A stretch of DNA of 64,000 nt from a virus (taxonomy: Duplodnaviria > Caudoviricetes), in IMG/VR virus record IMGVR_UViG_3300032007_000065, positions 13,898 to 77,897 of that record. The stretch is one strand, 5' to 3'. Every line of letters starts with the position of its first letter. The first letter of the stretch is position 1. Below the pieces are notes generated by a model. The model searched no databases. It was not told the DNA's origin and saw only the letters and a list, made by a program, of their open reading frames with translations. The translations under genes were made by a program, and so were the position numbers. Positions 2,465 through 63,618 of the stretch are shown here, piece after piece.

Positions 2465-2600
2465 TTCCACGTCGGAATCATCCCTTCTTTTTCTTGTGGA
2501 ACCCAGCAGTCTCCGACATTGGGGCCGGCTACAAGCCAATAAAGTCACTGCAATTACTTCGGCCGTTTCGGCCAATTCCTGTAGAAGGAGGTCAAAAGCT

Positions 2601-10382: not shown

Positions 10383-10414
10383 TGGTTTTCACCACCTTGT
10401 GATTTTCGACGTAT

Positions 10415-10426
10415 TAACCCGATGTT
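10415..10426 (-). promoter_or_regulatory. class B promoter motif AACA-N6-TA (AR9 late-promoter-like)
   Basis: Minus strand AACA TCGGGT TA about 30 nt upstream of the portal ATG. Confidence 0.5.
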
Positions 10427-10508: not shown

Positions 10509-10581
10509 CATACCGAAGTTCTAGTGGTGGAACGCAAGTCCAGAAAACTTGAGGTTGTCGGTTCGAGTCCGGCCGGTGCGG
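10509..10581 (+). tRNA. aberrant tRNA or tRNA-like RNA (nominal anticodon AGA)
   Basis: D stem GTTC/GAAC, anticodon stem CAAGT/ACTTG with loop CCAGAAA, T arm GTCGG-TTCGAGT-CCGGC, acceptor CATACCG/CGGTGCG with one mismatch. C at position 33, short variable loop, no encoded CCA. Confidence 0.65.
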
Positions 10582-13365: not shown

Positions 13366-13506
13366 CTGACCCGGGGAAGGCCCGAAAGGAGCCAGCTTTT
13401 AAGGGTATCAGCCGCGGGCGCGACGGGTTCGCGCAGTTTACGTTTTAATGTACCACAGAGACAGACACCTATCTAAACGAATCGAGTTGTCTAAGGAGTG
13501 ATCCAA

Positions 13507-14298
13507 TTGGCACTTAATTTCGGAGACTACATCGCGAATCCCTATGGAAAGGGAACGGGAATCGTACCGTCGAACGTCATCCGATCGAACATCGAGAACG
13601 AGACGGCGACGATGTACCCGGCTCCCATTCGATTCAAGGCCTACAAAGCTCCCCACCAACATCTGGTGCTGCACTGTAAGCTGCCGTCACGTACGAAGAA
13701 TGACGTCTTCTACGACATCGTCATGGACTTCGACCTGGCCCCGGGTTTCGAGACCAGACGGGCCATCACGAAGTACGACTGTACCGTCTTCTCGAACTCT
13801 CCATCGTTCTACTACACCTATGCCAAGGTGTTCCGGGAGAAGGGAGCACTTTGCCCCTGGCTCCAGAAGAAGTACGAACGCCAGATCATGAAGAAGAGTC
13901 CGGAGAAACGGAATCCATCGAACATTATCGGCTACGAGCGAACGCTCTACACCGGCATGTGGGTGACGATGCAGCAGACGAGAGGCCGCAGTGCGCGAGA
14001 CCTCTACGATAATGCACCGGAAATGACCTACAAGGAGCTGGCGAAGCTCGTTCAGTCCCAGGACGAAATCGAGACCGCCTACGAGAAGGCCCCGTACACC
14101 GCTCGGGAGCAGGCCCGCCGCAACGACATCGAACAGCGGAAGCTGCTACGGCAGAACCTCGGCCCGAAACGGCCGCTGAAACCGAAGACCACGGCACCGA
14201 CGTCGTCGACTGTCCAGAGAACTTCGACGACCCAGAAGACAAAGAAGACGAGTCTCTTCTCGAAGATTCGCCACACGACGAAGACGAAGAAGATATGA
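13507..14298 (+). CDS. hypothetical protein with basic C-terminal tail
   Basis: AAGGAG SD before TTG 13507; typical codon usage. Confidence 0.7.
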   Translation: MALNFGDYIANPYGKGTGIVPSNVIRSNIENETATMYPAPIRFKAYKAPHQHLVLHCKLPSRTKNDVFYDIVMDFDLAPGFETRRAITKYDCTVFSNSPSFYYTYAKVFREKGALCPWLQKKYERQIMKKSPEKRNPSNIIGYERTLYTGMWVTMQQTRGRSARDLYDNAPEMTYKELAKLVQSQDEIETAYEKAPYTAREQARRNDIEQRKLLRQNLGPKRPLKPKTTAPTSSTVQRTSTTQKTKKTSLFSKIRHTTKTKKI

Positions 14299-14362: not shown

Positions 14363-16546
14363 ATGCCCAGAAAGCCGAAAGCTGCCGAAGCTACGGCAAC
14401 CGAAACTGAAGTGATCCCCACCGTCGAACCGATTCCCGCGGATGACAAACCAGCTCCGGATCCCGTCCTCGTCGACGCCACCATCCGGTCCCACGGCCTC
14501 TATCCAAACTTTCGGTTCGACCCGAATGCAAAAGACAGCTACGAAGAGCAGGTCGTCCACAGCTGGTGGTTCCAGAACATCGAGAACTGCATGAGAATCA
14601 TGATCGACGACGGCTGGTACATCGAGAACTCGGAGACACCGTCGACCCTGGAAGAAGCCAGACCGGTGTTCGACCGGGTCTTCAAGTCCAGCGTCCCCAT
14701 CGACGACGAGCTGCTGGCGACGGCACTGCTGAACCACAGAATCCAGGTGTCGCCGAATCCGCCGAAACGTCGCCGCCGTGGTGGTCTGAAACCGCCGACT
14801 CCGGTCGACATTGCGGACGTCGTCTCCATTAAGGATGTCATGGCAGCAACGCCGGTCGGCGAACCAGTGTCCATCAAGCCGCTCATCGACCCGAAAACGA
14901 AACTTTCGCAAATCGACATCTTCGACAACGTCGAGAATGCTGACAACGCCATCACATACAAGATCCCGGAAGACCCCTTCGAGGTGTCCGACGACGACAA
15001 TGAGCCCATCATCCTGAAGGGGCGCGGTGGCTTCGTCGATCGGCCCGACAGCTTCAACATGATGACCTGGATCCCGCTGCCGGAGCAGACGTTCTTCGTC
15101 GAGAAGGATGGCATGATCGTGGCCCAGTACCTCGTCAACAGGTTCAACGTCCCGGAGGACCGCCACCTGTTGGAGTACATCATCGCCAAGAAGCACTATA
15201 AAGAGCGCATTCCGGATCTGATCCAGCACATCAACTACTTCGAGTCGTTCTATGACCATGACCATGAGTACCTTGTGTCGACACTGGCGACGAAGGACTA
15301 CATTGACCATCACCCGACGATGACCCAGAAGGCCTTCTGTCGTATGGTCGATGTCCGCATCATCACGCCGACCTTGGTCCGTAAGGTGAAGCACATGGCC
15401 CTAGATCTCTATCGACTCAACATCAACACTGACAAGGACGGCAAGTACAAGACGACGCCGAAGATCACCAATGACCATGCCCGCATGATTGTGGCGGTTT
15501 CCTTCTGCATCCGTCTCATCCTGCCTCTCTGCATCCATTTCTCGAACACCAATGCCACGTTCATCAACAAACGTGACTACATCGACTGCTTCGACCGCAT
15601 TTTCATGAAGGTGGTCCAGAAGTTCGAAAAGAATGACACCGAGATCTGGAACCCTATCTGCCGCTTCGTCGCCTATCGCGTCGAGCGTTCCCAGACGACC
15701 GATGCCGTCATCTGGGAAAAGAAGAAGCAGCTCTACGGCACCACCATGGAACTGTATCTCGAGACTCTGATTCACGAGGTTATCCTGGTGAAGTCTCTCC
15801 ACAAGCTGGCATACAACCGGTCCATCGTGTCGTTCATCGATGGCATCATCACCCATTCGTACATGCACTACCGCTACGAAAACTTCAAGTTCAAACCCGT
15901 CGAAATCGAGAACGAAGACTCGGACTCCGACGACTATCTGAGCCACGTCGAGGCACTGGAGATGCAAATCTCTCGTGTTGACGAGAGCAATCAGCTGGTC
16001 AACGAGACGAACATCGCCCAGGTCATGGCATCTCTCGAGAAACGGTTCAACGTCCCTATTGCAGAGGGAGAGCTGGAGTTCTACGTTGAAAACATCCACT
16101 TCAACTCCCTGATGCAGTCGTTCCTGCATGCCTTCTTCTCGAAGTACTTCAACGACACCAACGCCATCCGCCTGCTGGATCGTCGTCGGTCTGCTCAGTT
16201 GGCACTGTACCTGAAGAAGTATCTGCAACTCCGTGGTATGGTCATCCTGCCGCAGATCTGCACCGCCCGTGTTCACGGCAAGTTCAAGGACACCTGCATC
16301 AAGAACGCCAAGTTTCTCGAGAAGTTCACGACATCGAGCGTCTATCAGCACATCATCGCCGACAAGTATCGCTACATCGCCGAACTCCATCTGAAGGAGG
16401 ACCCGATCGTCAAGATGCTGTCGACTATGCTGAATTCGAGCTTCGAGTTCTGTGACTTCGACCCCGAGATCAACGGACGCGTCGCCGAAGAGTTCGACAC
16501 CGACATGCTGGTGTCTGAATTCATGACGTTCCTGTCGATCTGCTGA
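14363..16546 (+). CDS. nvRNAP promoter-specificity (sigma-like) subunit, AR9 gp226-like, with long N-terminal extension
   Basis: Blocks SFCIRLILPLCIHF, TDAVIW, KLAYNRSIVSFIDGII, LSHVEALEMQISRVD, ILPQIC and terminal LVSEFMTFLSIC are colinear with AR9 gp226 as recalled (SVLMRILIPILCDF, SDVVIW, KLKHNSSVISYLDVVI, LSEQERMEINLLRND, IIPEIL, LAEEVLDMLLCI). Confidence 0.75.
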   Translation: MPRKPKAAEATATETEVIPTVEPIPADDKPAPDPVLVDATIRSHGLYPNFRFDPNAKDSYEEQVVHSWWFQNIENCMRIMIDDGWYIENSETPSTLEEARPVFDRVFKSSVPIDDELLATALLNHRIQVSPNPPKRRRRGGLKPPTPVDIADVVSIKDVMAATPVGEPVSIKPLIDPKTKLSQIDIFDNVENADNAITYKIPEDPFEVSDDDNEPIILKGRGGFVDRPDSFNMMTWIPLPEQTFFVEKDGMIVAQYLVNRFNVPEDRHLLEYIIAKKHYKERIPDLIQHINYFESFYDHDHEYLVSTLATKDYIDHHPTMTQKAFCRMVDVRIITPTLVRKVKHMALDLYRLNINTDKDGKYKTTPKITNDHARMIVAVSFCIRLILPLCIHFSNTNATFINKRDYIDCFDRIFMKVVQKFEKNDTEIWNPICRFVAYRVERSQTTDAVIWEKKKQLYGTTMELYLETLIHEVILVKSLHKLAYNRSIVSFIDGIITHSYMHYRYENFKFKPVEIENEDSDSDDYLSHVEALEMQISRVDESNQLVNETNIAQVMASLEKRFNVPIAEGELEFYVENIHFNSLMQSFLHAFFSKYFNDTNAIRLLDRRRSAQLALYLKKYLQLRGMVILPQICTARVHGKFKDTCIKNAKFLEKFTTSSVYQHIIADKYRYIAELHLKEDPIVKMLSTMLNSSFEFCDFDPEINGRVAEEFDTDMLVSEFMTFLSIC

Positions 16547-16776: not shown

Positions 16777-16968
16777 CAAACGGTGAAGAGTGGATAGCCG
16801 GTTGCTCGAAAAATGGTTCCTAGCTGCTCGGGACAAAGAGAGCGGTCGACGTCGCAGCGTCGAAATTAAATGTCGCCGTCTCCTGCTGAGGGACGTTGGT
16901 TCAGAAGCGACGAGTGGCGTAGTTTATGCCAGAAAGAAAAGATGTGACACTCCACAGCTTTTCTTTTT
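16777..16968 (+). ncRNA. candidate ~190-nt non-coding RNA of unknown family
   Basis: Bounded by promoter copy 2 and a terminator (16931-16968); several stem-loops; no SD-led ORF. Confidence 0.5.
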
Positions 16969-17045
16969 GCCTGATAAACTACTATCGGCTCGACGAATCT
17001 CTAAGTCCCCAAGAAAACCACTTCATTAGAAAGGATGTGACACAA

Positions 17046-18098
17046 GTGGACCAGAATACACAAGCACCGGCGACGGAAGAGTCTCCGGCGCGTCCGCCTG
17101 TCGAACACAGTGACTGCACTCCTCCGGTTCAGATGACGCCGCATCGTTCGTTCAGCGACTTCCTCATCCGCGTCGACAATCTGACGTCGCAGCGAGCCGA
17201 CTGGAGTGACCCGACGAACAAGAATCGGCCGTTCAAGCACAGCTTCATCGAGTTCATTCATCGGCTGGTGCTGCGCATGCCGGTGGCACCGGAACTGGTG
17301 CCGCTCACCGACGGAACGGTTCGATTCCGTTACCGCAAGAACCATGCTCCGAAGGACAAGTGGCAGGTGTTGGAAATCATCGTGACACCGAAGCGTGTCT
17401 TCAGTCTGACGGCGAGATCCCGTCTCCCGAACCAGGCACCGTACACCCGCACCAACACCGCCAGACCCGACATCCTGTCGGACCTCGTCCGGTCGTTCTA
17501 CGAGCTCGACTCGGTCAATGTCCAGGACCATCCTCTGAAGTTCCGGTCCATCAATGTCAATGACATTCCGTACATCTCGGCCATGTGTCAGACATCATTT
17601 GGGCCGCACACCATCTATAAACCGAAAAACATCGGCGTCCTGCTGGACCACACCGTCGTTGCCGAAGATCCCATCTACGGCATCATGTCGGTGGCCGCCA
17701 TCCACAAGTCTGAACGCGATGACTTCGACTACGAAGTGTCTTTCCTGATCACGGTGGAGAATTGTCGTGGTCTGTCTCTGGCGTCCCAGTGTCTCCGGAA
17801 GGCCGTCACCAATGTGCTGGCCCAGGAGCCCGAAGCCGAGATTCTGGCGACGTCGATCCTGCCCGACGGACAGGTGAAGGACGTTGCCCAGTCGGCACTT
17901 CGCCGTGCCGGATTCCGTCGCATTCGCATCGTCCGCGGCGAGCGTCGCTATCGTTGCTTCGACTGCGATCGCTGCAACAAGACGAACGGCTGGTGTGACT
18001 TCGAAGATCCGAATTCGGTCTGCTCCACGGTCTACTACAGATTGTCGAACCACGGTGGCAAACTCGGCTATGGTGGTCGCAAGGTGACAGGCCAGTAA
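17046..18098 (+). CDS. two-domain protein with C-terminal GNAT acetyltransferase and Cys cluster
   Basis: GNAT motif A (ITVENCRGLSLASQCL); CxxCxxC..C..C near the C-terminus; AAAGGA SD before GTG 17046. Confidence 0.65.
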   Translation: MDQNTQAPATEESPARPPVEHSDCTPPVQMTPHRSFSDFLIRVDNLTSQRADWSDPTNKNRPFKHSFIEFIHRLVLRMPVAPELVPLTDGTVRFRYRKNHAPKDKWQVLEIIVTPKRVFSLTARSRLPNQAPYTRTNTARPDILSDLVRSFYELDSVNVQDHPLKFRSINVNDIPYISAMCQTSFGPHTIYKPKNIGVLLDHTVVAEDPIYGIMSVAAIHKSERDDFDYEVSFLITVENCRGLSLASQCLRKAVTNVLAQEPEAEILATSILPDGQVKDVAQSALRRAGFRRIRIVRGERRYRCFDCDRCNKTNGWCDFEDPNSVCSTVYYRLSNHGGKLGYGGRKVTGQ

Positions 18099-18120: not shown

Positions 18121-18924
18121 ATGGCCGACCAACTGTTGCCGCCGAAGATGTACCTGCCACACAGCGAAGACACAATGATTGAAGTCCGAGCCATTGTTGC
18201 CACAGACAAGGTAGGTGTCATCGGCTACGACAATCATCTGATTTTCAACAACCCAGACGATCTCAAGACCTTTCGAGCAAAGACCATCGGTCGTGTCGTC
18301 GTCATGGGTCGAAAGACATTCGAATCCATCGGCAGGATTCTTCCGGATCGTCAGACCATCATCCTGACACACGACCCGAAGTCCTACACCGAGAAAGTGC
18401 TCAAGAACTACCACTGCAAGAGAGGCACCGACACCCCGAGACCGATCGCAACGGATCGACTCGACCAGACCGTTCCGGAAGTCTGTGAAACCTACGGATC
18501 CCATAAGGTCTGGATCGTTGGTGGCGCCGAGCTCTACCGTGGCTGCAGCAATGCCATCGGCACCTGGATGGTCACCGAATACGCCATCGAACTCGAGCAG
18601 TACCTCAGTGACAGCGATCAGGATCCGGTCGGTGTCAGCTGCGGCCTTCTGCCGAAGGACTATGACTACCGGAAACTGACGACACTCGAACGATCCATCT
18701 ATACGAATCAGGCGTCCGTCAACACCCTGGAACTTGGACGCTTCAACGTCGACGGCCACGACATTCGTTATGCCGTCAAGTCCTACAATCGCATGGGTCG
18801 TCTCCCGTACGGTAAACCGACGACTCGTAACAAGACGATCGACGAGATCGAAGAGATCAACCGTCGGCAGTACAGTCTTCCCCAGGACGAACACTACGGA
18901 ATGGAGGCTGACAGCCATGATTGA
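18121..18924 (+). CDS. folA: dihydrofolate reductase (extended)
   Basis: IVATDKVGVIG..DLKTFRAKTIGRVVVMGRKTFESIG..LPDR..VWIVGGAELY. Confidence 0.9.
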   Translation: MADQLLPPKMYLPHSEDTMIEVRAIVATDKVGVIGYDNHLIFNNPDDLKTFRAKTIGRVVVMGRKTFESIGRILPDRQTIILTHDPKSYTEKVLKNYHCKRGTDTPRPIATDRLDQTVPEVCETYGSHKVWIVGGAELYRGCSNAIGTWMVTEYAIELEQYLSDSDQDPVGVSCGLLPKDYDYRKLTTLERSIYTNQASVNTLELGRFNVDGHDIRYAVKSYNRMGRLPYGKPTTRNKTIDEIEEINRRQYSLPQDEHYGMEADSHD

Positions 18925-19115: not shown

Positions 19116-19161
19116 AATGAAGACTAGAGCTTCGGCTCTAGTCTTCATTGTTTTTCTTTTT
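19116..19161. terminator. bidirectional intrinsic terminator
   Basis: AATGAAGACTAGAGC-TTCG-GCTCTAGTCTTCATT with T-rich tail. Confidence 0.85.
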
Positions 19162-19839
19162 GTATGTCGAATGTCGCACGATCTCTTCGATCTCGCGAAT
19201 CTCTTTCTCGGCCTTCTGATCGTCCGTTGCCAGAGGCTCCGTGAAGAAGTCCTTCTGTTTCTCGATGATCTGGTCAATGAATTCCGTGTGGGCCTTGGTG
19301 TTGTCGTCGATCTTGTCGTTGATCTTCTTGGCATCTTCCGGATCCAGAAGAGCGCCGGCCATGATCTCGCCAATGGCCCGAAGCGTCGTAGACGTCTCGT
19401 TGGTGAATCGCATGTTGTATCCTTCGATCTCCATTAGCGCCTGAAGACGGTTCTCCGTCTGGGTGTGCATGTGCATCATCTGCGACATGGCCCTGGCGTT
19501 CTTCGATAGGATGGCCACAATGGAGTTGATGGATTCTTCGGCATGCGCCATGCGCTCCGCCATCTCAGTTGACACGTGGGTCAACTGAGTTTCAATGGAG
19601 TTGATCTGGCGCTGCATCGAGTCCAGTGTCACCTGGAGTTTCTCACGCTCCTGCTGCTCATGTTCTTCCCGCAGCTGCTTTTCAGCAGCGTCGGCACGGG
19701 CCTTTTCGGCGGCAGCTTCGGCGTTCTGTTTCTTCTCTTTATCGTTACGGTGTGTGATCCAGGCGACGAGTACGGCGGAAAACATCGTACAGAGAGCCGG
19801 GATGGCGACTGACAGAAGTGTTGCGGTAGTGCTGTCCAT
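19138..19839 (-). CDS. N-terminal transmembrane, coiled-coil protein
   Basis: One TM helix (LLSVAIPALCTMFSAVLVAWI) followed by heptad-rich helices; GAGGTG SD. Confidence 0.7.
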   Translation of the reverse strand: MDSTTATLLSVAIPALCTMFSAVLVAWITHRNDKEKKQNAEAAAEKARADAAEKQLREEHEQQEREKLQVTLDSMQRQINSIETQLTHVSTEMAERMAHAEESINSIVAILSKNARAMSQMMHMHTQTENRLQALMEIEGYNMRFTNETSTTLRAIGEIMAGALLDPEDAKKINDKIDDNTKAHTEFIDQIIEKQKDFFTEPLATDDQKAEKEIREIEEIVRHSTYKKKNNED

Positions 19840-19870
19840 TGGCGTCACCTCGCAAAAATAGATTCATAAT

Positions 19871-19882
19871 TAGGGGTGTGTT
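19871..19882 (-). promoter_or_regulatory. class B promoter motif AACA-N6-TA
   Basis: AACA CACCCC TA about 30 nt upstream of ATG 19839. Confidence 0.5.
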
Positions 19883-21164: not shown

Positions 21165-21950
21165 TCAGTTCAACTCCTTCAGGATGCGTTCTTCGTAGTT
21201 GGTGGCGACCCGTTCCATGATGATGGCTCGAGTGATGACACCGATGCCACCGATCTTTGGAGTCGTGGCAATGGAACCGGCATCGATCGGCAGATTCTCC
21301 CAGTAGCTGAGGTCGAAGTTGTTGCCGATGTCGATGAGAATGGTGCCACTGTGCAGCAGATCACCCTGGAACTTTGTGCCATAGGGAGCCGTTGAAACGA
21401 CGACGTCGGCGACATCAATGAGACTCTTCAATCTTTCGTTCCCCGTCTTCGAGTGGGCCACAATGACGGTCTTGTCGATGCCGAGAAGTCGGCGGGCGAT
21501 GACCTTCCCAATGGAGTCGCTGCGACCGATGACCAGGACGGTGTCGCCGTCGGTTGAGACGATACGCCGATCGAAGATCGCCATGGCAGCTTCGACGACG
21601 GCCTTCTCATAGGGTGTGCCGAAGCCATCGTCGACGGACAGAGATCTGTCGTTGTCGTACGGGATACTGAGCCCAGCTCCACTAAGAGAGACATAGCCGT
21701 CGATGACACGTTCACCTTTGACGACAGAGTCGATGTCCGATTGTGTATAGGCATCAAATACTTCGATGCCGACGTCTTTGGCGGTCTTCTTCAGCATGCG
21801 GCTGAAGATTAGGTCGTCTTCGGCATTGCTGCCGTTCAGCAGCATCAGTGTCGGGTCGGCGAATCCGAGATCAGTCTTCTTATGAATGCGACCTCTGGTG
21901 ACGCCGTTCGTAATATTGGCGATGTATTGACAGTCCAGATAGTGGACCAT
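21165..21950 (-). CDS. folD: FolD-like methylene-THF dehydrogenase/cyclohydrolase (divergent N-terminus)
   Basis: VLVIGRSDSIGK, VAHSKT, ADVVVS, ILIDIG, TPKIGGIGVITRA. Confidence 0.75.
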   Translation of the reverse strand: MVHYLDCQYIANITNGVTRGRIHKKTDLGFADPTLMLLNGSNAEDDLIFSRMLKKTAKDVGIEVFDAYTQSDIDSVVKGERVIDGYVSLSGAGLSIPYDNDRSLSVDDGFGTPYEKAVVEAAMAIFDRRIVSTDGDTVLVIGRSDSIGKVIARRLLGIDKTVIVAHSKTGNERLKSLIDVADVVVSTAPYGTKFQGDLLHSGTILIDIGNNFDLSYWENLPIDAGSIATTPKIGGIGVITRAIIMERVATNYEERILKELN

Positions 21951-22009: not shown

Positions 22010-22456
22010 CTAGGCTCTATCATCTTGCAGTAGGGACGGATTCAGGTCTTTCGTTTCGGCAGTTCGTTTCCAGCTCAGCGACCATGTGCCGCAGTTTCGG
22101 CACTGACTGATGACGACGAAGACATTCGAGTGGAGCTCGGGCTCCGGAAGGTCTGCAGCGTCTTCAATGTCGTTCGGCACGTCGTTCGGCCATGGGATCT
22201 GGGTGATCTTTCCATGGTCAAAGTCATCTGGGTCGACACAGCAGCTCAACTCCTGACGTATCCAATGATACATGGTACGTCCGGGACGCAGTATGCCAAT
22301 CGACAGTGTCACGTAGCCGATGACGTAGCGGTCGACAAACTCACAGGGTTGACTGTACTGGAGTTTCGGATCCCAGTTGGTGCCCATCGGTGGCGACGGG
22401 CATCTTCGGACTCTCGCAGTCTCAAGGGTTGTCGGTGTGTTGATCATGACCGTCAT
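22010..22456 (-). CDS. hypothetical protein (CxxC)
   Basis: 148 aa, co-oriented, overlaps the deaminase 3' end. Confidence 0.55.
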   Translation of the reverse strand: MTVMINTPTTLETARVRRCPSPPMGTNWDPKLQYSQPCEFVDRYVIGYVTLSIGILRPGRTMYHWIRQELSCCVDPDDFDHGKITQIPWPNDVPNDIEDAADLPEPELHSNVFVVISQCRNCGTWSLSWKRTAETKDLNPSLLQDDRA

Positions 22457-23171
22457 TCTCCTTCTTTGGAGAAACCATTGTGCTCATTACCAGTTCTCCA
22501 TTACCCATTCGTACCAAATCGGGAATGTGGGTCATGTCCATCGTCGTACGGAATTCTTTCATCTGCGATGCGAACTTCAGGATCTTGATCGGATCCGGAA
22601 TGTCGGCTTCGTCGTCGTAGAGTGGGCGATACTCCTCATCGTAGATGCGCTTCTGGAAAGACGTCGACGTGATGTCCATGGTGACGACGTCGGCGTTGTA
22701 GCTGTTCGGGTTGCCGTCGGCGGGTACGGCGTCGTCCTTTTTCTGAAGTCCGACAACTCTCGAAATGCCGGCGTTGACGATGAGTCGATGGCAGATCAGA
22801 CAGGGAGATGGGTTGGCATAACGGCCGTCTTTCTCGATGCCAACGATGTAGAGAGTCGAGCCGATCATGTCACGCCGTGCGGCGGATATGATGGCATTCA
22901 TCTCGGCATGGACTGACAGACATAGGTTGTAGCCCTTACCCTTCTCGACGTTGGCGACGTCGCGCATGCAGATGCCCATGTCGGTGCAGTTGATGCAGTC
23001 TCTCGGCGAGCCGTTGTAGCCCGTTGCCAGGATCTCGTCGTTCTTGACGATGACGGCACCGTAGTGACGACGCTGACACGTCGACTTCAGTGCCACTGCT
23101 TGGGCGATACTGAGATAGTACCGATCCTTCGACATCTGTTTGATGTATCCAGCTTTGGTGGTATCGGACAC
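22422..23171 (-). CDS. dCMP deaminase
   Basis: STCQRRHYGAVIV, ATGYNGSP, HAEMNAI, PCLIC Zn motifs; GAAAGGAG SD before GTG 23171. Confidence 0.9.
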   Translation of the reverse strand: MSDTTKAGYIKQMSKDRYYLSIAQAVALKSTCQRRHYGAVIVKNDEILATGYNGSPRDCINCTDMGICMRDVANVEKGKGYNLCLSVHAEMNAIISAARRDMIGSTLYIVGIEKDGRYANPSPCLICHRLIVNAGISRVVGLQKKDDAVPADGNPNSYNADVVTMDITSTSFQKRIYDEEYRPLYDDEADIPDPIKILKFASQMKEFRTTMDMTHIPDLVRMGNGELVMSTMVSPKKENDGHDQHTDNP

Positions 23172-23262
23172 AGCTGTCACTCCTTTCATTCGTTTCGTGT
23201 TCAAAACGATTTTAACTGGGTGTGGAATTCTACATAGAAATCCGAACATGGCCGTTTCAACG

Positions 23263-32021: not shown

Positions 32022-33815
32022 ATGAACCAGATTCTGAACGAGAAAGGATGGTTCACGTTGCTTAACTACATCCACGAGTATCCGAACCCGCATGTGGGCG
32101 AGTTCAACGAAGACTTCATCTACGCAAGGGACGACATTCCCATCGAAGATCTAGTCATCATGGTCATGAAGGACTTCGAGACGATCGAGAACATCGAGAT
32201 CCTCAGCGTCGAAGTCATCACCGACCAAGACGAAGTGGACTACAACTACCACACCGTCAATATCAACTACAAGAAGAAACGTCTTGACCAGATTGAGATA
32301 CCGAAAAATAAATTCGTCACCGACTCCAGATTCGGCGAAGTGGTCTTCACCATTCGCATTCACACGAATCTGAACGAAACGACCATTGTCAAACGCATAC
32401 TCATTCCGGTCGAAGAGGACGGCCAGTTCCTGCTGTCGTCGAAGACGTGGAAGCCGATCTGGCAGCTCTGTGACGCCAACACCTATACCCAGCGCGGCAA
32501 GGTGACGTTCAAGTCCCGTATGCCGATCATCATATACCAGACGAAGAACCGCATCATGCAGGACATCTCCGGCAACGAATGGAACTTCACGTCGCATTCA
32601 TATGCGCTCGACACCAAATCGAAGCGCCGCGGATCGAAGAAAAAGACGAAGTTCATCAACCCGCTGATGATATTTGCCGCCAAGATGGGCATGCGCCGTG
32701 CACTGGCCTACTTCCACATGGACGGCATCATTCGACTGGTGCCGAAGATCGACGACGACTACCATGAAGCCAGTCTCTGCAGCTACTTCAAACTCGACGA
32801 CGTCTACGTCGAAGTGCCGACGGAGCTGCTGGACAAACACGAACTGGTGCGCCACGTCACCTGTATGCTGCTCTACTGCGGCTCCAGAGATTTCCCGGTC
32901 CAATGGGACGATCTCGAGAACCGCGAATACTGGATCTGCCGCATCGGCTACATTGGATCCATCAAGAGCCCGAGTCTCTATTCGTTCCGCGACAAGGGCT
33001 ACACCACCATGCACATGATCGAGCGTCTCTACGACTCGATCTCCGAGCAGAACCTGCGGCTGCCCGAGGTCTACAAGGACTCGATCTATTCCATTCTATA
33101 CTGGATGATTCTCAATTTCGACACGCTGAAGTCCAAGAATAACATGGACATGATGACGAAACGAATTCGTCGCAACGAGTGTATTGTCATGTCGTCGCTT
33201 GGCAAGAAGGTCGCCGAGAACATCAATAAACTCATCGAAAAGAAATCGAAGTCCAAGATGAACACCATGGACACGCTGCTGGAGCTCTTCAACTTCCCCA
33301 GCGACATCGTCATGAGTGGTGTCAAGAACAACTCCGACATCGTCAAGTCCGACGACATCGTCAACGACATGAGCTTCCTACAGGATCTGGCCTACAGCTC
33401 CAAGGGACCGAACTCACTCGGCGAGAATTCGTCGAAGTCAATTCCGGCGCGATACCGCTACCTGCACCCGTCTCAGATGGGCATACTCGATTTGAACGTC
33501 AGCTCGAACTCCGACCCCGGCATGAGTGGATCGTTCACGCCGTTCGTGAAGCTCTACGATGGATTCTTCTTCAATCCGAATCCCGACCCCTGTGATGCCG
33601 AGTACGAGCACCTGAAGGGACTCCATGAGTTCCTGAAAGGCAACCGGGCGTTCCTGAAGTCGTTCCCGGAACTGAAGGACTCCATCCTGGTGAAGATTCC
33701 GGACAAGTCGCTGGCGGATCTCGACAGCTTCGTCAAGTACGTCACCAAGTACCGGACGGAGTTTGCAGACGCCCTTCGGTATCTGCCCATCGAGATCCAC
33801 GAGAAGGAGGACTGA
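32022..33815 (+). CDS. RNA polymerase beta subunit, N-terminal part (split phage RNAP)
   Basis: RYRYLHPSQMGILDLNVSSNSDPGMSGSFTP matches the beta motif R.vHps.yG.icp..tp....G; QLCDANTY; context of other split RNAP subunits. Confidence 0.85.
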   Translation: MNQILNEKGWFTLLNYIHEYPNPHVGEFNEDFIYARDDIPIEDLVIMVMKDFETIENIEILSVEVITDQDEVDYNYHTVNINYKKKRLDQIEIPKNKFVTDSRFGEVVFTIRIHTNLNETTIVKRILIPVEEDGQFLLSSKTWKPIWQLCDANTYTQRGKVTFKSRMPIIIYQTKNRIMQDISGNEWNFTSHSYALDTKSKRRGSKKKTKFINPLMIFAAKMGMRRALAYFHMDGIIRLVPKIDDDYHEASLCSYFKLDDVYVEVPTELLDKHELVRHVTCMLLYCGSRDFPVQWDDLENREYWICRIGYIGSIKSPSLYSFRDKGYTTMHMIERLYDSISEQNLRLPEVYKDSIYSILYWMILNFDTLKSKNNMDMMTKRIRRNECIVMSSLGKKVAENINKLIEKKSKSKMNTMDTLLELFNFPSDIVMSGVKNNSDIVKSDDIVNDMSFLQDLAYSSKGPNSLGENSSKSIPARYRYLHPSQMGILDLNVSSNSDPGMSGSFTPFVKLYDGFFFNPNPDPCDAEYEHLKGLHEFLKGNRAFLKSFPELKDSILVKIPDKSLADLDSFVKYVTKYRTEFADALRYLPIEIHEKED

Positions 33816-36240: not shown

Positions 36241-36267
36241 ACGCAGAAAGAAAGGATGATCCAAAAC

Positions 36268-37425
36268 ATGAAGAAACCCATTGTGCTGACCATCGACGGC
36301 ATCGATGGCTCGGGCAAAGCAACGATAACGGAATGCATCATCGACCACATTCGTGACAGCGGCCACAGTGTCACGTCCGTCAGTTTCCCGGACTATCTCA
36401 GTCCGACTGGCCAGGCCATCTCGGAGTACCTTGGCAACGGATACGGCCAGTCGAATAACCGGACAGCGGCAGCGACACTCTACAGTGCCGACCGGAACCG
36501 CTACTGGATGAATAACTTCTGGCGTCTCTTCGGCAGCGGCGGCTACGACTATGTCGTCCTGAATCGAAACTGGATGGCCAACATCTTCTTCCATACGGCG
36601 CTTCTGACGGCGAAGGCAACCGAACTCAATGCCGTCGAGCAGAAGTACAAACTGAGCTACTGGATGCCGGCCATGACACTGGCCGAATGGTACCACCTGT
36701 TGAAGGCTGCCGGAATGATCATGACGGACCGACTCTGGTCGGAGCAGTACATCCGGAACTTCATCGACTCCCTTCCGACAGAGACCAGCCTCGACGGTGC
36801 CCGCATCGGCATAAACGGCGGTATGAAACGAGCCTTCGATAAGAAGCTGACGGCGTACGAGTACCTGACTAAGGTGTCGATGACGGCCAATGTTGAGTTT
36901 CCGAATTCTGCTGCGGAGAACGGCTTCGAAGTCAAGACCATCGACCATCCGCTCATCCACGAGAACTGGGAGGAAATTCTTCAGGCATACAAGATGAACC
37001 GAATCAATACCGTCCGCATCATGATGCTGACGATGTTCCAATCGGAGATCATGCCGTGGTTCGGAAACGAAGACTTCGAATTCCGGACCGTCGTGCTGTC
37101 ATCGTCGAGACCGAGCCATTCGCAGCAGCTGTTCCGCAAGAACCTGCTGAAGCGCTACAACGGAGATGCGTCGAAGCTCGACGTCCACGAACAGTCCGGC
37201 GACTATCTCGGATCTGTCGTCGAGAACGTGGCCTTCATCAAAGAGAACATGCCGGAGATCCTGTCGATCGATGGCATCTTCCGCGCCCTGCTGCCGCAGT
37301 CGACGGGTCTCATGAAGTACTTCGACTACGACGTCATCAACATCGACGCCGGCTACGACGATCCGATACTCCGTACTCTCGACGACGAAGTCGCCGAGAC
37401 CATTGAGAAACTTCGGCTCGACTGA
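36268..37425 (+). CDS. tmk: thymidylate-kinase-like protein with large insertion
   Basis: P-loop IDGIDGSGKAT, FPDY.SPTG..I.EYL, LYSADR; about twice the usual TMK length. Confidence 0.65.
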   Translation: MKKPIVLTIDGIDGSGKATITECIIDHIRDSGHSVTSVSFPDYLSPTGQAISEYLGNGYGQSNNRTAAATLYSADRNRYWMNNFWRLFGSGGYDYVVLNRNWMANIFFHTALLTAKATELNAVEQKYKLSYWMPAMTLAEWYHLLKAAGMIMTDRLWSEQYIRNFIDSLPTETSLDGARIGINGGMKRAFDKKLTAYEYLTKVSMTANVEFPNSAAENGFEVKTIDHPLIHENWEEILQAYKMNRINTVRIMMLTMFQSEIMPWFGNEDFEFRTVVLSSSRPSHSQQLFRKNLLKRYNGDASKLDVHEQSGDYLGSVVENVAFIKENMPEILSIDGIFRALLPQSTGLMKYFDYDVINIDAGYDDPILRTLDDEVAETIEKLRLD

Positions 37426-39027: not shown

Positions 39028-39825
39028 TCAGGCATTGACCAGGCATGTGGCCCTGGTGCCGTCGTCGAGAAACTTCTGTGTCGAGTAGCGGAGCCGGAAC
39101 CGAATCCGGTTTCCGTCGACGGCGACGTCCTTGAGCCAGAGCGGATACCGAAGCTTCAGCATTTCGGCGAGATCGCTGCCGACCGGCTGCAGAGCAGCTA
39201 CAATGTTCGGATCGTCACTTCGACTGAACCGAATGTTGTCGAGTCGGTCCTTCGACGGAATGATCTCGAGTTTCGATTCAAAGTAGTCCTTCGGCAGTTC
39301 CTGACCGTCCTGGTCTGCGGGCGCCAGGCAGCTCCTGAAGCTGTCCCTCAGAGACCGGGTCTCCGGAATGACGTCGTTTCTATTGGGATCCGAAAGCGAT
39401 CGATTGTAGAGGTTCGTCAGGTACCGGTAGCTAAAGTCGAAGGCTCGACTTCCAATGATCTTCTTCAGCATCTTCTCCGCATAGCTGCAGACGCTGCTGT
39501 AGACCTTCTCCGGAGAATCGTCGCTGAACTTCTGGAGCAGCTCCGGCGGCTGGTCCAGCAGCCAGTTCGAGTCGATGTCGTAGAATCTGGCGGCCTGGAA
39601 CACCTGTTGGGCGAGACAGTTCTTGTCCATGTAGGCTCGAGCAGAAATGGCTTCGTCGACGACTTTTCGGAAGTCGTCTCCGGACCAGTCTCTGTAGAGG
39701 TCCGGGCGGTCGTAGATGTTGCTCGCAATGAGCACCGACCAGACCCAGATGTTTTCGTTTCCGCGGTTGCAGGAGGCGTCGAATGCCTCCATTGCATAGA
39801 GTTCAAAGTTGTCAATGTGACCCAT
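39028..39825 (-). CDS. hypothetical protein
   Basis: Co-oriented long ORF with typical codon usage. Confidence 0.7.
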   Translation of the reverse strand: MGHIDNFELYAMEAFDASCNRGNENIWVWSVLIASNIYDRPDLYRDWSGDDFRKVVDEAISARAYMDKNCLAQQVFQAARFYDIDSNWLLDQPPELLQKFSDDSPEKVYSSVCSYAEKMLKKIIGSRAFDFSYRYLTNLYNRSLSDPNRNDVIPETRSLRDSFRSCLAPADQDGQELPKDYFESKLEIIPSKDRLDNIRFSRSDDPNIVAALQPVGSDLAEMLKLRYPLWLKDVAVDGNRIRFRLRYSTQKFLDDGTRATCLVNA

Positions 39826-39894
39826 GGAGCCACCTTCTTTCAAGTGATTACATGAATGTCGACTGCCTCAGAAGTCAGCAAACTACGGCCCCTG

Positions 39895-46085: not shown

Positions 46086-48104
46086 TTAGATGACGTCGGC
46101 CAACACCGGTACGAACAACGGATCCAGATGGGACGGCGCCGATGCCTGGTAGAGCGCAGTCGACGTCAGAGCCTTCTTCAGCCACCCAGAGCTCAACCGA
46201 ATCATCGGACTCGGGTTCTTGCTGAGGCTCGTCGTCAGTCTCAAGATGACGTAGTCCTCATGGTCTCCGTTCGGACCGAAGTCCGGCTGCTCCAGTTCAT
46301 TGTCGCGCTTTCGCAGCAGCGCTCTAGCCACCATCTCCAGATGGACCAGATTGTAGTTGATGCCTGCATCCATCATGATCTCGGCGTACTTCTGGCAGAA
46401 GCCGTCGATGTCATAGAGATAGCCCATGTGGTCCTTGCTGTCGAGAATCTGAGTAATTTGCTGAATCGACTGGGACACCGCCTTCGACTTGATCTCGATG
46501 TTGAACAGCACCGGGCTCTCGTCGTCGTCGGCATAGTCATCGAGAATGTCCAGCGGAATGGGACGATCCCGATACTGCTTCCAGATCGCAGTCATGGTCT
46601 TGGAGAAGTAGAGTTTGAAGCCGTGCTCCTCCTGGACATGGGCCTTCAGCTCCCCGTTATAGTCGATAAGATTGAATTCTTCGATGTAGTAGGCGTCGCC
46701 GTCCTCCGTCTCTTCGGTATGGACCTCGCCAAGCAAAATCATCAGAGAATCTTCAACCGAATCGGAAACCGTCACTTCGGTGGCGGTGATGTCGAAGCTC
46801 TTGTAGAACTCTTCGGCAAATGTAATTTCGTCAGAGTGTGTTTCCTGAAAATGTTTCTGTTTTAGAACCAGCTGACCGGTGGGCTCCGAGACAACCGTGG
46901 CAGCGAACGATCCCGGGCTGAAGAGATCCATATTGATGTCAAAGAGTTTCTCACCATAGCAGGCTCTGCAGACGCCGTCCTTCGATGTGCAGGTACAGGG
47001 AGAACGGAATCCGATGCGCTTGCCGATGAGCTGTGTGTCTTTGAATCCGTCGAGAATTTTCTCCTGACCCTCCTCATCGTAGTAGGTTCTACCGTCGAGC
47101 AGTTTCAGGAAAATCTCGTCCTTGATGTTGTAGTAGATGGGTCGAGTCGAGTTACAGACCTCGCGGTCTTTCCTCAGCACGACCGACGTCGCGTTGTTGT
47201 TCATCTTCTTCGACAGGGCACCGGGCTTCGACATAGACAGTTTCATGTCCATGAGAGCCTTTCGTCCGCCGGCGGCACCGGTGTAGAATCCAGCCGGGGT
47301 GTCGATACCGGTGATCAGCAGGTTGCTGCCGATGAACCAGGGAATCGTTCTCGAGCTGATGTCCGCCTTGTAGCCGACGTGGAGGAAGATCTCCTTGACC
47401 TGAGCCGGTGTCAGGTTCTTGCCGGACTTGATGAGTGGCTTCAGGTCGGAGTCGCTGTTTCCGAACGCCTTGATGAGTCGCGTCGTCATGTCGTTCAGAT
47501 CGTCTTCGATCTCTTTCGCCTGACGCGTCGAGTCAAAGTCGCTGTACATGAGGTCGTGAATCTCGGGGTTTGCCTTTTCGGCCTGCATGATGTCCCAGAT
47601 GGACGCCGAGTAGCCGAAGATGAGGCAGAAGGTGTCGGAAATGGCTCTGATGTGGAAGATGATTTCGTCAATAATGGCATTGAGCGTGTGGAAGTCACCG
47701 TCGTAAGCAGGAATGATCTGGTTGTCGATGATGTCGCCAATGTCCTGGACGGACTTGTCCCTCCAGTCGATGACGCGGCTCTCGTCCAACAGATCGGTCC
47801 TCTCCATCTTCATGTAGGCGTACCAGATGACCATGTTCGACAGGAAGTGGCGACACTGCAGGGTGTAGATCGTCGCGTTCTTCTGGTCGAGGTCCGACTG
47901 GTGGAAGACAAAGTTGATCGGAAACTCGCGGACCTCCTTGTACTCGAGCCCGTACTTCAGGAAGTCGAGAATGTCCTGGTAGACGTACGAATAGGTGTCG
48001 TCGTCCAACAGTACATCTTCGAGCACGAGCGTCTTCGTCGAGTAGGTCTTGACGAGTTCCTTGAATGGTTTCTTCGGGTGGCCCTTGTAATCGATTGTGA
48101 TCAT
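46086..48104 (-). CDS. RNA polymerase beta-prime subunit, C-terminal part (split phage RNAP)
   Basis: Bridge-helix-like SKPGALSKKM, Zn site FRSPCTC..GVCRACYG, SEPTGQLVLKQKH trigger-loop region. Confidence 0.85.
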   Translation of the reverse strand: MITIDYKGHPKKPFKELVKTYSTKTLVLEDVLLDDDTYSYVYQDILDFLKYGLEYKEVREFPINFVFHQSDLDQKNATIYTLQCRHFLSNMVIWYAYMKMERTDLLDESRVIDWRDKSVQDIGDIIDNQIIPAYDGDFHTLNAIIDEIIFHIRAISDTFCLIFGYSASIWDIMQAEKANPEIHDLMYSDFDSTRQAKEIEDDLNDMTTRLIKAFGNSDSDLKPLIKSGKNLTPAQVKEIFLHVGYKADISSRTIPWFIGSNLLITGIDTPAGFYTGAAGGRKALMDMKLSMSKPGALSKKMNNNATSVVLRKDREVCNSTRPIYYNIKDEIFLKLLDGRTYYDEEGQEKILDGFKDTQLIGKRIGFRSPCTCTSKDGVCRACYGEKLFDINMDLFSPGSFAATVVSEPTGQLVLKQKHFQETHSDEITFAEEFYKSFDITATEVTVSDSVEDSLMILLGEVHTEETEDGDAYYIEEFNLIDYNGELKAHVQEEHGFKLYFSKTMTAIWKQYRDRPIPLDILDDYADDDESPVLFNIEIKSKAVSQSIQQITQILDSKDHMGYLYDIDGFCQKYAEIMMDAGINYNLVHLEMVARALLRKRDNELEQPDFGPNGDHEDYVILRLTTSLSKNPSPMIRLSSGWLKKALTSTALYQASAPSHLDPLFVPVLADVI

Positions 48105-52306: not shown

Positions 52307-52423
52307 GGTATTGTGCTCCTTTCTAAAATCGATTAGTGCGGTTGTTAATGGTGTGAGATGCTTTCAAACGAACCGACTGACTGGAGGTACAACACCATGA
52401 GATGCGGTTGTGTTTTTCTACGC

Positions 52424-52458
52424 AAAAAGAAAGGAGTCCGGAGACTCTTTTCTCTTTC
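52424..52458 (-). terminator. terminator closing the pentamer array
   Basis: Minus strand AAAGAGTCTCCGGACTCCTTT followed by CTTTTT. Confidence 0.7.
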
Positions 52459-52599
52459 TCTCGACCGAAGTCGAGGCCATTGGGATGACAGGCATAGGGA
52501 TCGAAATGCGTCTCATTCCGACGTCATCGCCATGATGCTGCCCGACCTGGTAGTGGAGCACTATTCCACTACTCCACGAAACAGTGGAACGCTTTTCCA

Positions 52600-55500: not shown

Positions 55501-56319
55501 GACATAGAGAGTTTCACTATGTGATGCCGCAGCCTCACGAGGCTAGACGTTATTGGACCATCCCTCGCCGATACTAGAGGCGACGTTACAAAGCGATGCC
55601 TCTCACTTCAGATAGCCTCACGTTCTGCGCTTGTCCATAACGCAACTTCGAATTGAGCTTCCGTACATGACCATACCGTTACCCTGGTTGACTCAGCTAA
55701 TCCGAAACTTCACTTCACTTTTCCAGAAAGGGCATAGCTATTCCGTCACCGTAAATGACTCACAAGACCGCACTCCACTCTTCCAGACTTAGCCGAAGCA
55801 TAGAATAGATTGGCCCCGTTTCACTTCGCCAATACTGCATCTTTCATGACCATACCTTCACCGCATACAACTAAGCCCACAGCAGCGACTCGCTTTCCCG
55901 GCAGCGCATATCGACACCGGTGCTGCACGAAGCGCCATTTTACGCAGTAATGCGTCGCTATTCCCATGCCGAAGAAGATCCAGGCCGTAGATAGCCAACA
56001 CAGCTCGCCGGAGCGTAATACTGGACTTTAGCCGAAGCAGCTCTGGGTCATACCATAGATAGCCATCACATTGGCACACAAATGCTGAGCCATAGATAGC
56101 CACCACAGGTTAGCATTGTACATCGTTAGACCGTAGACAGCCACCGCAGACCAGCATGGTACTATACATCACTGAGCCGTAGATAGCCGCAGCGAATCAG
56201 CATAGGACACAGTTAGGCCGTAGATAACCGATACGTCCAAAAGCAAAGCACCACAATGCCGTTGATAGCCAACGCTTAGCGACGTACGACGCATCAATGA
56301 CTTACGATGCCAGCGCGTT
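52600..56319 (-). repeat. non-coding array of 5-nt-phased units (NRY-NN pentamers; units mostly 5n+1 nt), putative guide-RNA array (VIPR-like)
   Basis: No credible CDS over ~3.7 kb. Example minus-strand units: GGC AA AGT CC TGT GC GGT TA TAT TC CGC AT T / GGT AA TGT CC CGT GC AGT GA AGT TC AGC GT C / GGC AA AGT TG GGC AT AGC TG CAC AT AGC TT G (52727-52635). Boundary spacings of 31, 36, 41 and 46 nt recur. Confidence 0.85.
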
Positions 56320-56511: not shown

Positions 56512-56588
56512 ATAAAGCCTGCGCCCGGGACCGCCGTAGGAGAGACGGCCCCAGACGCTGGAAGGCGAAGAGCTGGAAGTGAGTGAAA

Positions 56589-61175: not shown

Positions 61176-61649
61176 TCAGAGCCCTTCGACGAAGCTGTCG
61201 ACGAGGACGCAGTTTTCGACATCCTTCAGCAGCTTGTCGGTCTCGGGTCGATGGAACGAACTCAGAGCCTCTTCAGCCGAAGAGACGACGGGTCGATTGC
61301 CCGGAGGCTGCCAGTGGACGTCTCCGATTCTTATGACGATCTTGGCTCGATCCGTCGGTACCATGAAGGTTCGCATGCTGCGACGTCGTTCCTTCAGTTC
61401 CAGCAGCTCGTTGAGGACGACGTAGCGGCAGTGGTCCGTCAGACCGTAACTGTAGGCCAGCACCCACCGTTTGTCGCGGAGCACTGCAAAGACGTTCGAC
61501 ATGAGAATGTACGGGTTCAACAGCGGCTCCTCACGGCAGTAGTCGACAGCCTCGCGGAGACTGATGTCCCGAAGGAATTCGACGGGTACCTTCTGGTAGT
61601 AGAATCTCGACACAACGGGACTGTCGAAGTTCAGCAGCTCGATTCCCAT
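61176..61649 (-). CDS. hypothetical protein
   Basis: Coupled to the thyA stop (TGATG overlap). Confidence 0.7.
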   Translation of the reverse strand: MGIELLNFDSPVVSRFYYQKVPVEFLRDISLREAVDYCREEPLLNPYILMSNVFAVLRDKRWVLAYSYGLTDHCRYVVLNELLELKERRRSMRTFMVPTDRAKIVIRIGDVHWQPPGNRPVVSSAEEALSSFHRPETDKLLKDVENCVLVDSFVEGL

Positions 61650-62581
61650 CAGACGGCGACCTCAATGTCTTCATTGAATTCGTCGTACTGATAGTTCTCG
61701 ACAATCATGTCATTGGGCGTGAAGTGATAGAAGTCAGGAGCTGCATCCGGAATGTAAACGATCGGAGCAGCAAACTGATTCGGGTTTGATTTGGCCTTGG
61801 CGATCATGTCACGGACGATGTCCTCGTGACGGTCGTAGATGTGACAGTCGTAGCGGATGTGGACGAGACGGCCCGGCTCCATGCCGACCTCTCGGGCCAC
61901 CAGCATCAGCAGGAAGGCATATTGGACGGTGTTCCAGTTCGATGCCGTCAGCATGTCCTGACTCCGCTGCATCAGCACCGCATTCAGCAGAAGACGCCCG
62001 GTCTTTTCCTCCTGGGTGACATTATAGTACATGCCATAGGCGCAGGGTCTGAGACCCATGTCGGCCAGATCGGACATGTTGTACGTCGACGTCATGATGG
62101 ACCGAGACATGGGTGAATTCCGCAGGTCGTAGAAGACGGCATCCATCTGGTCCAGATAGACCCAGCCGTCCTTGGCGTATGCCGACGGATACATCGACAG
62201 GTCTTCGTCCTTGATTCTGTGGTGCTTGGCGGCCTGGGCAATCTGGTAGCCGTAGGCCTTACCAATGGTGCCGTCGCCGACATTCCAGTCGTCCCAGATC
62301 TTCGACTGGAGATCGGCGATGACGTTCGATTTCTGACGATAGATCCAGAGGATCTCCTGAAGTGCAGTCTTCCAGTAGGTTCTCCTCAGGGTCATCATGG
62401 GGAACTCGTAGTTCGGATCCTTCGGATCGAGCACGTAGTCGTGCCGGTCACAGAAGATCTTACGGGTGTGGGCAGGGGTGCCGTCGTGCCAGTGGGGACG
62501 AACCGGCATACCCTTGTCCGAGAACGGCGAATTCAGAATGGCTTCGGCGCTCTCAATGAAACATTTGTCTGCGTAGGTCAT
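61649..62581 (-). CDS. thyA: thymidylate synthase
   Basis: EILWI, IWDDW, GKAYGYQ, LRPCAY (catalytic Cys), QRSQD, WNTVQY, HIYDRH. Confidence 0.95.
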   Translation of the reverse strand: MTYADKCFIESAEAILNSPFSDKGMPVRPHWHDGTPAHTRKIFCDRHDYVLDPKDPNYEFPMMTLRRTYWKTALQEILWIYRQKSNVIADLQSKIWDDWNVGDGTIGKAYGYQIAQAAKHHRIKDEDLSMYPSAYAKDGWVYLDQMDAVFYDLRNSPMSRSIMTSTYNMSDLADMGLRPCAYGMYYNVTQEEKTGRLLLNAVLMQRSQDMLTASNWNTVQYAFLLMLVAREVGMEPGRLVHIRYDCHIYDRHEDIVRDMIAKAKSNPNQFAAPIVYIPDAAPDFYHFTPNDMIVENYQYDEFNEDIEVAV

Positions 62582-63527: not shown

Positions 63528-63618
63528 GATAGTCTCCTTTCGCAGAAAATAAAGACTAAGCCCTCCGGAGAAGGCTTAGTCTCATGTGATGAGATGTCTG
63601 TGTATTTAAGTGGACCAA

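Follow-up and report, generated by a model that had tools for sequence, protein, structure and literature searches.

The closest described relative of the system considered here is the non-virion RNA polymerase (nvRNAP) of the uracil-DNA phages AR9 and PBS1, for which structures of the sigma-like subunit gp226 and of the nvRNAP core are available (PDB 7S01, 7UM0, 7UM1; PMC9209446, PMC5449584). In AR9, the -10U is bound in a pocket made up of gp226 I207, the backbone N of V206 and I207, and residues R363 and K375 of the betaN subunit gp105 (PMC9209446). The C-beta atom of V206 lies 3.9 Å from the C5 of uracil and the V206G mutant accepts thymine, Y210 stacks on -9G, and S245 and Y246 hold the non-template strand, such that Y246A and S245E mutants lose activity on double-stranded DNA but keep activity on fork templates (PMC9209446). 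A phiKZ paper published in 2026 states that the template-strand uracil mechanism cannot apply to thymine-DNA phages (PMC12809450). Throughout the literature that we searched, the AR9 mechanism is treated as uracil-specific and Val206 as the side chain that keeps thymine out, and we found no description of AACA-type promoters in phages that encode a thymidylate synthase. Here we analyse a 64,000-nucleotide stretch (the window) of a Caudoviricetes virus (IMG/VR record IMGVR_UViG_3300032007_000065, positions 13,898 to 77,897; the contig), in which a gene for a gp226-like subunit at 14363-16546 is accompanied by genes for thymidylate synthesis. The phage belongs to a large uncultivated clade that keeps the sigma-like subunit, the AACA-type promoter and Val or Ile at the pocket position (52 representatives) yet encodes thymidylate synthesis, thus offering a natural test of whether the AR9-type promoter system needs uracil. 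The reading that we favour, with a probability of roughly 0.6, is that an AR9-type nvRNAP works in this phage on thymine DNA with a re-tuned pocket.

The gp226-like subunit and its pocket residues

The initial annotation had described the product of 14363-16546 as a gp226-like sigma subunit, and both sequence and fold bear this out. When the protein was compared with the PDB using phmmer, AR9 gp226 (7S01_A) was matched with an E value of 4.4e-15 and was the only structure matched; residues 268-719 align with residues 32-456 of the 464-residue chain, covering both the N-terminal domain (NTD) and the C-terminal domain (CTD). The 727-residue protein also matched PHROG 25005 'RNA polymerase' (8e-22), and a Pfam search gave no match. 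An AF2 model built on 30 homologs has pLDDT values of 80-95 across most of residues ~230-727 and below 50 across most of residues 1-215. Foldseek searches with this model again placed the AR9 holoenzyme subunit first (7S01_A at 1.9e-14, 7UM0_A at 3.8e-14), with phiKZ gp68 next at 2e-4; the high global rmsd of the match to gp226 is due to domain orientation. In a collection of cultured phages, tblastn matches were confined to AR9/PBS1-like phages and Yersinia phage phiR1-37, both of which have uracil-DNA. Homology, fold and the cultured-phage matches together therefore confirm the protein as a real gp226 homolog, and we propose that it is the functional ortholog of AR9 gp226 in the nvRNAP of this jumbo phage. 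Its start codon is supported by the N-terminal sequence MPRKPK, which agrees with the MPRKKK common to close homologs, and a strong Shine-Dalgarno sequence, AAAGGAG, lies 8 nt 5' of the ATG.

The g227-g226 gene pair of AR9 is kept in the window and in relatives, and AR9 homologs were found for 16 of the 69 proteins of the contig. Both AR9 and phiR1-37 have a GroEL gene adjoining this pair; here a GroEL-like gene is found at 48221-50407, 32 kb off.

The residues that read the promoter in AR9 can be followed into the new protein by HMMER alignment. T446-D-A-V449-I450-W451 falls on gp226 S203-D-V-V206-I207-W208, and the helix at residues 448-458 of the AF2 model agrees with the 2.1bis helix (gp226 residues 205-214). 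The Val-Ile pair of the uracil pocket is thus retained, as had been anticipated from the sequence. The RSIVSF motif aligns with the gp226 region N-S-S-V-I-S245-Y246 (SSVISY). The initial annotation had counted Ser245 and Tyr246 as part of the pocket: the Ser is indeed kept and the Tyr replaced by Phe (S490/F491), but in AR9 these are contacts to the non-template strand and not pocket residues (PMC9209446). Y210, the residue that stacks on -9G in gp226, corresponds to K453. The other half of the pocket is contributed by betaN, for which the window encodes a homolog of AR9 gp105 (E 9e-32 against 7S00_c). HMMER and MAFFT agree in aligning R363 with K403 and K375 with T415, an assignment that is provisional at ~26% identity. 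The betaN pocket loop hardly differs among the five clade genomes, irrespective of the residue at position 206 (gp226 numbering is used for alignment columns).

We found ~190 metagenomic homologs of the sigma-like protein, and the best 120 of these were aligned with gp226 and phiR1-37 g245 and placed in a FastTree phylogeny rooted on AR9 and phiR1-37. Among the aligned homologs, column 206 contains V (38), P (32), I (20) and G (18) as well as T, L, M, A and R, and there is almost no variation at D204, I207 and W208 of the 2.1bis motif. The S245 column is invariant and the Y246 column is F or Y in all 121 homologs, for which the Y210 column reads K in 108, Q in 12 and M in one. The tree resolves two clades, one of 52 cluster representatives that includes the protein studied here (support 1.0) and a sister clade of 68. 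In the former, position 206 is only V or I in 52/52 representatives, with many V/I swaps, and we refer to it as the V/I clade. The sister clade has G, P, A, M, R, T or L at this position, with an occasional V or I, and natural Gly, Pro and Ala are confined to it.

Eight loci of relatives were obtained from IMG/VR, and four records were taken whole. G002 (176 kb, 70% complete) has the motif DAVIW, i.e., Val at position 206, and encodes ThyA, dihydrofolate reductase (DHFR) and TMK. The other three are complete: G006 (255 kb; DIGIC, Gly) encodes ThyA with an adjacent DHFR, TMK and a dUTPase-like protein, G005 (255 kb; DSPIW, Pro) encodes ThyX, TMK and dUTPase, and G004 (220 kb; DRAIW, Ala) encodes ThyX and TMK. 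A link between residue 206 and the use of ThyA or ThyX was considered and rejected, as V, G, A and P types all occur with a thymidylate synthase.

The N-terminal extension of roughly 250 residues, said in the initial annotation to be absent from gp226, was confirmed, with 235 residues before the first family-invariant column (W236) compared with six in gp226. The further suggestion that it adds a regulatory domain did not hold up. The Pfam search recognised no domain in the extension, most of residues 1-215 are predicted at pLDDT below 50, and residues ~7-145, mostly of low confidence in the model, are unmatched in nine of the ten aligned clade-A homologs; the tenth, P0038, has its own long and poorly conserved insert in this region. 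Residues ~150-235 are conserved within the V/I clade and include a basic patch, PPKRRRRGGLKPP. The extension thus appears, as judged from the model, to be a clade-variable tail of ~235 residues that is largely disordered and carries a conserved basic patch, for which a regulatory role is possible.

Late and early promoters

Genes were called with a codon-usage model, and all motifs consisting of a 4-mer, a gap of 4-8 and a 3-mer were enumerated in oriented upstream regions (3-4% of the sequence) versus the whole genome. This unbiased enumeration returned AACA-N6-TAA or an overlapping form (AAAC-N7-TAA, ACAC-N5-TAA) as the first motif in the contig, G002, G004 and G006, and as the first or second in G005, with p values for the top motif between 6e-9 (the small contig) and 4e-39 (G004). 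The core ACA-N6-TAA lies upstream of genes in 10 of its 17 occurrences in the contig, 31 of 40 in G002, 35 of 57 in G005, 61 of 125 in G004 and 36 of 135 in G006, compared with 24 of 217 in AR9, which served as the positive control. The window contains 11 copies of the core against a shuffle expectation of 10.6, and the signal is therefore one of placement and orientation rather than of number. Iterative refinement of a position weight matrix drifted on the small contig, mixing N5 and N6 spacings, and we used the unseeded enumeration and leave-one-out counts instead.

NACA-N6-TAA is found 30-75 nt 5' of late genes in this phage (sheath, portal-like, terminase and virion genes) and in the four relatives. 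Within the window, eight such sites are listed in Table 1; that before the g227-like gene has the same placement in relatives L074 and L004. A further four were found in the 14 kb preceding the window, 5' of genes for a virion structural protein and a terminase and of two unannotated genes. Leave-one-out counts gave -10 A, -9 C, -8 A, -1 T and +1 A in every genome. Position -11 differs between the groups: it is A in 20 and T in four of the AR9 sites and mostly A in the sister clade, whereas it is unconstrained in the V/I clade (A3 C2 G4 T1 here and A12 C4 G8 T7 in G002, with L074-L076 similarly spread). This relaxation at -11 may be tied to the methyl exclusion of AR9 at -11.

CCRYATATCAT-N6-G was found as a second motif, with 13 copies located 5' of replication-type genes (ligase, PolB, GNAT and others). 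Its architecture matches that of the early promoter of the AR9 virion polymerase (vRNAP), AAATATATATTAT-N6-G (PMC5312081), and the AT-richer relatives G004-G006 carry TATATTAT itself in place of CCRYATATCAT. No consensus early promoter lies directly 5' of the sigma-like gene, where the 64-nt spacer contains a variant, AACACATCAT-N6-G, with 1-3 mismatches. The two promoter models, CCRYATATCAT-N6-G for early and NACA-N6-TAA for late genes, can be used for annotating this group of phages.

Thymidylate genes and other features of the window

The initial annotation had reported canonical-looking ThyA, DHFR, FolD and TMK genes. All four are present, but the description as canonical applies to ThyA and is overstated for FolD, of which the NAD(P)-binding domain alone is recognisable, and for TMK. 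ThyA, aligned to Bacillus subtilis ThyA (1B02), keeps the catalytic Cys (PC), the RSxD motif, the dUMP-selecting Asn and the HxY motif. ThyA, DHFR, the FolD-like protein, the TMK-like kinase and a dCMP deaminase all score under the NCBIfam equivalog cut-offs. The TMK-like protein has roughly double the usual length; the fused form is also found in G002, G004 and G007, and full-length TMK matches were obtained in G005, G006 and G008. The ThyA protein (P0122) is identical to one on a 299,802-bp contig of a public collection, and a near-complete genome of this phage of ~300 kb therefore probably exists.

TMK is found in seven of the eight clade records. DHFR occurs with ThyA in the contig, G002 and G006, and neither of the complete genomes with ThyX, G004 and G005, encodes it; DHFR thus tracks ThyA and not ThyX, which argues for true thymidylate synthase chemistry, in which dihydrofolate is made, and against a hydroxymethylase. 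In two more V/I-clade contigs (278 kb and 106 kb) DHFR is located 3-5 kb 3' of the sigma-like gene, as in the window, and a third, from a basal subclade, differs in synteny. The clade that retains V/I is itself positive for ThyA and DHFR, with V/I fixed throughout and -11 relaxed. By contrast, ThyA, ThyX, DHFR, TMK and dUTPase are all missing from the complete AR9 and phiR1-37 records, so that the difference from uracil-DNA phages noted in the initial annotation stands.

The initial annotation had also suggested looking for a uracil-DNA glycosylase (UDG) inhibitor and dUTPase. A tblastn search with AR9 Ugi gave no match in the contig, G002, G004, G005 or G006, which is weak evidence because Ugi is small and fast-evolving; dUTPase was not found on the contig, and G005 and G006 each encode one. 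None of the ten records, AR9 and phiR1-37 among them, has a member of the UDG family PF03167, a negative that is uninformative for that reason. Sequencing reads U as T; gene content argues against a dU genome, and thymine is the most likely base.

Table 1. Coordinates of the sigma-like gene, its motifs, associated genes and candidate promoters in the window
Feature	Position	Strand	Basis or remark
Late-type promoter TACAAGCCAATAA, before tail sheath gene	2530..2542	+	
Late-type promoter AACATCGGGTTAA, before portal-like virion gene 7617-10382	10414..10426	-	
Late-type promoter GACACCTATCTAA, 43 nt before g227-like gene	13464..13476	+	
Homolog of AR9 g227 (directly 5' of g226 in AR9)	13507..14298	+	conserved micro-synteny
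gp226-like sigma-like promoter-specificity subunit of nvRNAP, P0001 (function proposed)	14363..16546	+	727 aa; PHROG, phmmer, AF2, Foldseek
N-terminal extension, residues 1-235	14363..15067	+	alignment, AF2 model
TDAVIW, start of 2.1bis-like helix; V449/I450 correspond to gp226 V206/I207, -10U pocket wall	15698..15715	+	HMMER alignment, AF2 model
RSIVSF; S490/F491 correspond to gp226 S245/Y246, non-template-strand contact outside the U pocket	15818..15835	+	HMMER alignment
Late-type promoter GACAGGCCAGTAA, before DHFR	18086-18098	+	
DHFR	18121..18924	+	PF00186 1e-27
Late-type promoter AACACACCCCTAA, before gene 19138-19839 (function unassigned)	19870..19882	-	
FolD-like protein	21165..21950	-	9e-19
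dCMP deaminase	22422..23249	-	
Late-type promoter CACACCCAGTTAA, before dCMP deaminase	23212-23224	-	
nvRNAP betaN subunit, AR9 gp105 homolog; K403 and T415 align with pocket R363 and K375	32022..33815	+	tblastn, HMMER, MAFFT
TMK-like kinase, N-terminal dTMP-kinase P-loop half fused to unassigned C-terminal part	36256..37425	+	PF02223, first ~115 residues of 385-389 aa
Late-type promoter GACATTCATGTAA, before gene 39028-39825	39848..39860	-	
RNA polymerase beta'-like fragment subunit	46086..48104	-	homology
Thymidylate synthase ThyA	61649..62581	-	PF00303 2.6e-59, 201 bits vs cut-off 24.3
Late-type promoter CACATGAGACTAA, heading minus-strand gene run that ends with ThyA	63576..63588	-	
CCRYATATCAT-N6-G sites	6536, 7312, 23260, 23984, 26185, 34417, 39007(-), 43404, 57726(-), 60020(-), 61098(-)		two more before the window

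Three other features of the window were recorded. A gene at 16926-18098 (350-390 aa), between the sigma-like gene and DHFR, has a counterpart of 55% identity at the same position in G002 and was not matched by Pfam or NCBIfam. One tRNA-Ser (anticodon AGA) at 10509-10581 lies in a 1.2-kb gap after the portal-like gene, and 4.3 kb at 52307-56588, between genes of 336 and 364 aa, hold no credible open reading frame and have the lowest GC of the window (0.51).

Readings of the -10 pocket and comparison with known systems

According to the reading that we favour, the sigma-like subunit, betaN and the other split beta/beta' subunits would direct transcription from the NACA-N6-TAA late promoters. The 2.1bis-like helix (D447-A-V449-I450-W451) and betaN would together form a pocket for the template base that is flipped out opposite the invariant -10 A, while S490 and F491 would hold the non-template ACA strand during melting. 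Of the two pyrimidines that can stand opposite this A, T and U, the flipped base would be T, and the pocket would tolerate its 5-methyl group although the beta-branched Val is kept. Such tolerance could arise because the rest of the pocket differs, with betaN R363 replaced by K403 and K375 by T415, Y210 replaced by K453 and the specificity at -11 lost. Taken together, the changed betaN contacts, the altered -9G stacker, the loss at -11 and the freedom of the sister clade at position 206 with the same promoter make a re-tuned pocket the simplest reading. The initial annotation had left a choice between a pocket re-tuned for T with the same AACA-type promoter and DNA that carries U or a modified base at some stage; the occurrence of NACA-N6-TAA before late genes in this phage and in four relatives favours the former.

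Several observations weigh against a re-tuned pocket. In AR9 the thymine methyl clashes with the C-beta of V206, and only V206G relieved the clash (PMC9209446); with the same geometry, Val, or any residue other than Gly, should therefore keep T out. The strictness of V/I at position 206 in the 52 representatives, as in both uracil-DNA phages, looks like selection for the same function. A re-tuned pocket leaves it unexplained, which keeps alive both recognition through the non-template strand and genuine use of uracil. In addition, the residue-level alignment of betaN is based on ~26% identity, and the search for dUTPase gave no match in the contig (32% complete) or in G002 (70% complete).

Recognition might have shifted, such that NACA-N6-TAA is read mainly on the non-template strand, by the NTD surface near S490/F491 or by a phiKZ-like pocket in a beta subunit, with V449 and I450 serving in the packing of the 2.1bis helix. 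The S245 and Y246 columns, invariant and F/Y respectively in 121/121 homologs, are better conserved family-wide than position 206, which in the sister clade is G, P, A, M, R, T or L while -10 remains A, and Y210, R363 and K375 are all replaced. The gp226 NTD binds a promoter-complementary AACA-like motif over >30 Å (PMC9209446) and the TATG of phiKZ is read on the non-template strand via a beta-like subunit (PMC12809450). However, the 2.1bis residues D204, I207 and W208 hardly vary, the -10/-9/-8 consensus is that of AR9, where template-strand recognition is proven, and the strictness of V/I in the 52 representatives suggests a functional constraint at exactly site 206; on balance we regard a shift to the non-template strand as unlikely. 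Alternatively, the phages of the V/I clade could carry deoxyuridine, either genome-wide or confined to replicating or late DNA, with Val demanding U at -10 and the thymidylate genes serving another purpose or stage. In its favour, the clade never departs from V/I, in line with AR9 and phiR1-37, dUTPase was not found on the two available records with Val, a dCMP deaminase is present here as in AR9 and could supply dUMP, and the atypical TMK-like kinase could accept dUMP. On the other hand, ThyA, DHFR, the FolD-like protein and TMK would jointly make dTTP, and both sequenced uracil-DNA relatives are without any of them. The uracil-DNA strategy of phage PBS2 depletes dTMP and involves no dTMP synthesis. 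In addition, tblastn found no Ugi homolog, and the V/I clade shows no constraint at -11, a position at which AR9 requires U, all of which makes a deoxyuridine genome quite improbable in our view.

Two further possibilities carry still less weight. The V/I clade may have a truly uracil-selective -10 pocket in a packaged genome that is otherwise thymine-based, with deoxyuridine incorporated at replication through the dCMP deaminase and the TMK-like kinase licensing late transcription. Incorporation of U would then be a replication-coupled switch for late genes, a scheme that we consider very improbable. Least likely of all, the ThyA homolog may make a 5-substituted dUMP, e.g., 5-hydroxymethyldeoxyuridine (5-hmdU), to which the pocket would have adapted as a modified thymine. 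Compatible with this are the ThyA score under the NCBIfam equivalog cut-offs and several neighbouring genes of unassigned function. Yet DHFR is found strictly with ThyA and not with ThyX, as fits the dihydrofolate made by a true thymidylate synthase, whereas hydroxymethylases release tetrahydrofolate; all catalytic motifs of the enzyme are kept, a C5 substituent larger than methyl would clash even more with Val, and hypermodification genes were not recognised in the gene content. If, as we favour, a pocket of different construction lets the AR9-type mechanism operate on thymine, the role ascribed to Val206 changes; the other outcome would be phages that carry uracil despite making dTMP.

Compared with AR9 and PBS1, the phage described here shares the two-domain sigma-like fold, the S/T-D-x-V-I-W motif and the S-[YF] contact, the g227-like 5' neighbour, and split beta/beta' core subunits in the genome. 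The promoters are likewise of the same kinds, xACA-N6-TA for late and ATAT..AT-N6-G for early genes. It differs in that the sigma-like protein is ~20% identical to gp226, bears a 235-residue N-terminal extension and has Lys in place of Y210, that betaN has Lys for R363 and Thr for K375, and that -11 is not conserved and +2 A is. ThyA, DHFR, FolD-like and TMK genes are present here and not in AR9, Ugi was not detected here, and GC is 55% compared with ~28% in AR9. The uracil-DNA jumbo phage phiR1-37, whose g245 gave the only cultured-phage tblastn match besides the AR9-like phages, resembles our protein in its SDQVIW motif and in S-F, with the same Phe as here, and has the gene order GroEL-g244-g245; unlike our phage it has no thymidylate genes and keeps Y210. 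No late promoter consensus has been reported for phiR1-37 (PMC5312081).

The thymine-DNA jumbo phage phiKZ has a sigma-like fifth nvRNAP subunit, gp68 (PDB 8QUE, 9RJS; PMC12809450), which was the next Foldseek match after the AR9 chains but has no detectable sequence similarity to the protein described here. Late promoters of phiKZ are of the TATG type, read on the non-template strand by a beta-like subunit, whereas the promoter found here is AR9-like and not phiKZ-like. The engineered AR9 gp226 variant V206G (PMC9209446) poses the same question as this phage, that of how T is accepted at -10; in that variant T is tolerated through removal of the side chain, whereas in the natural protein described here Val is kept.

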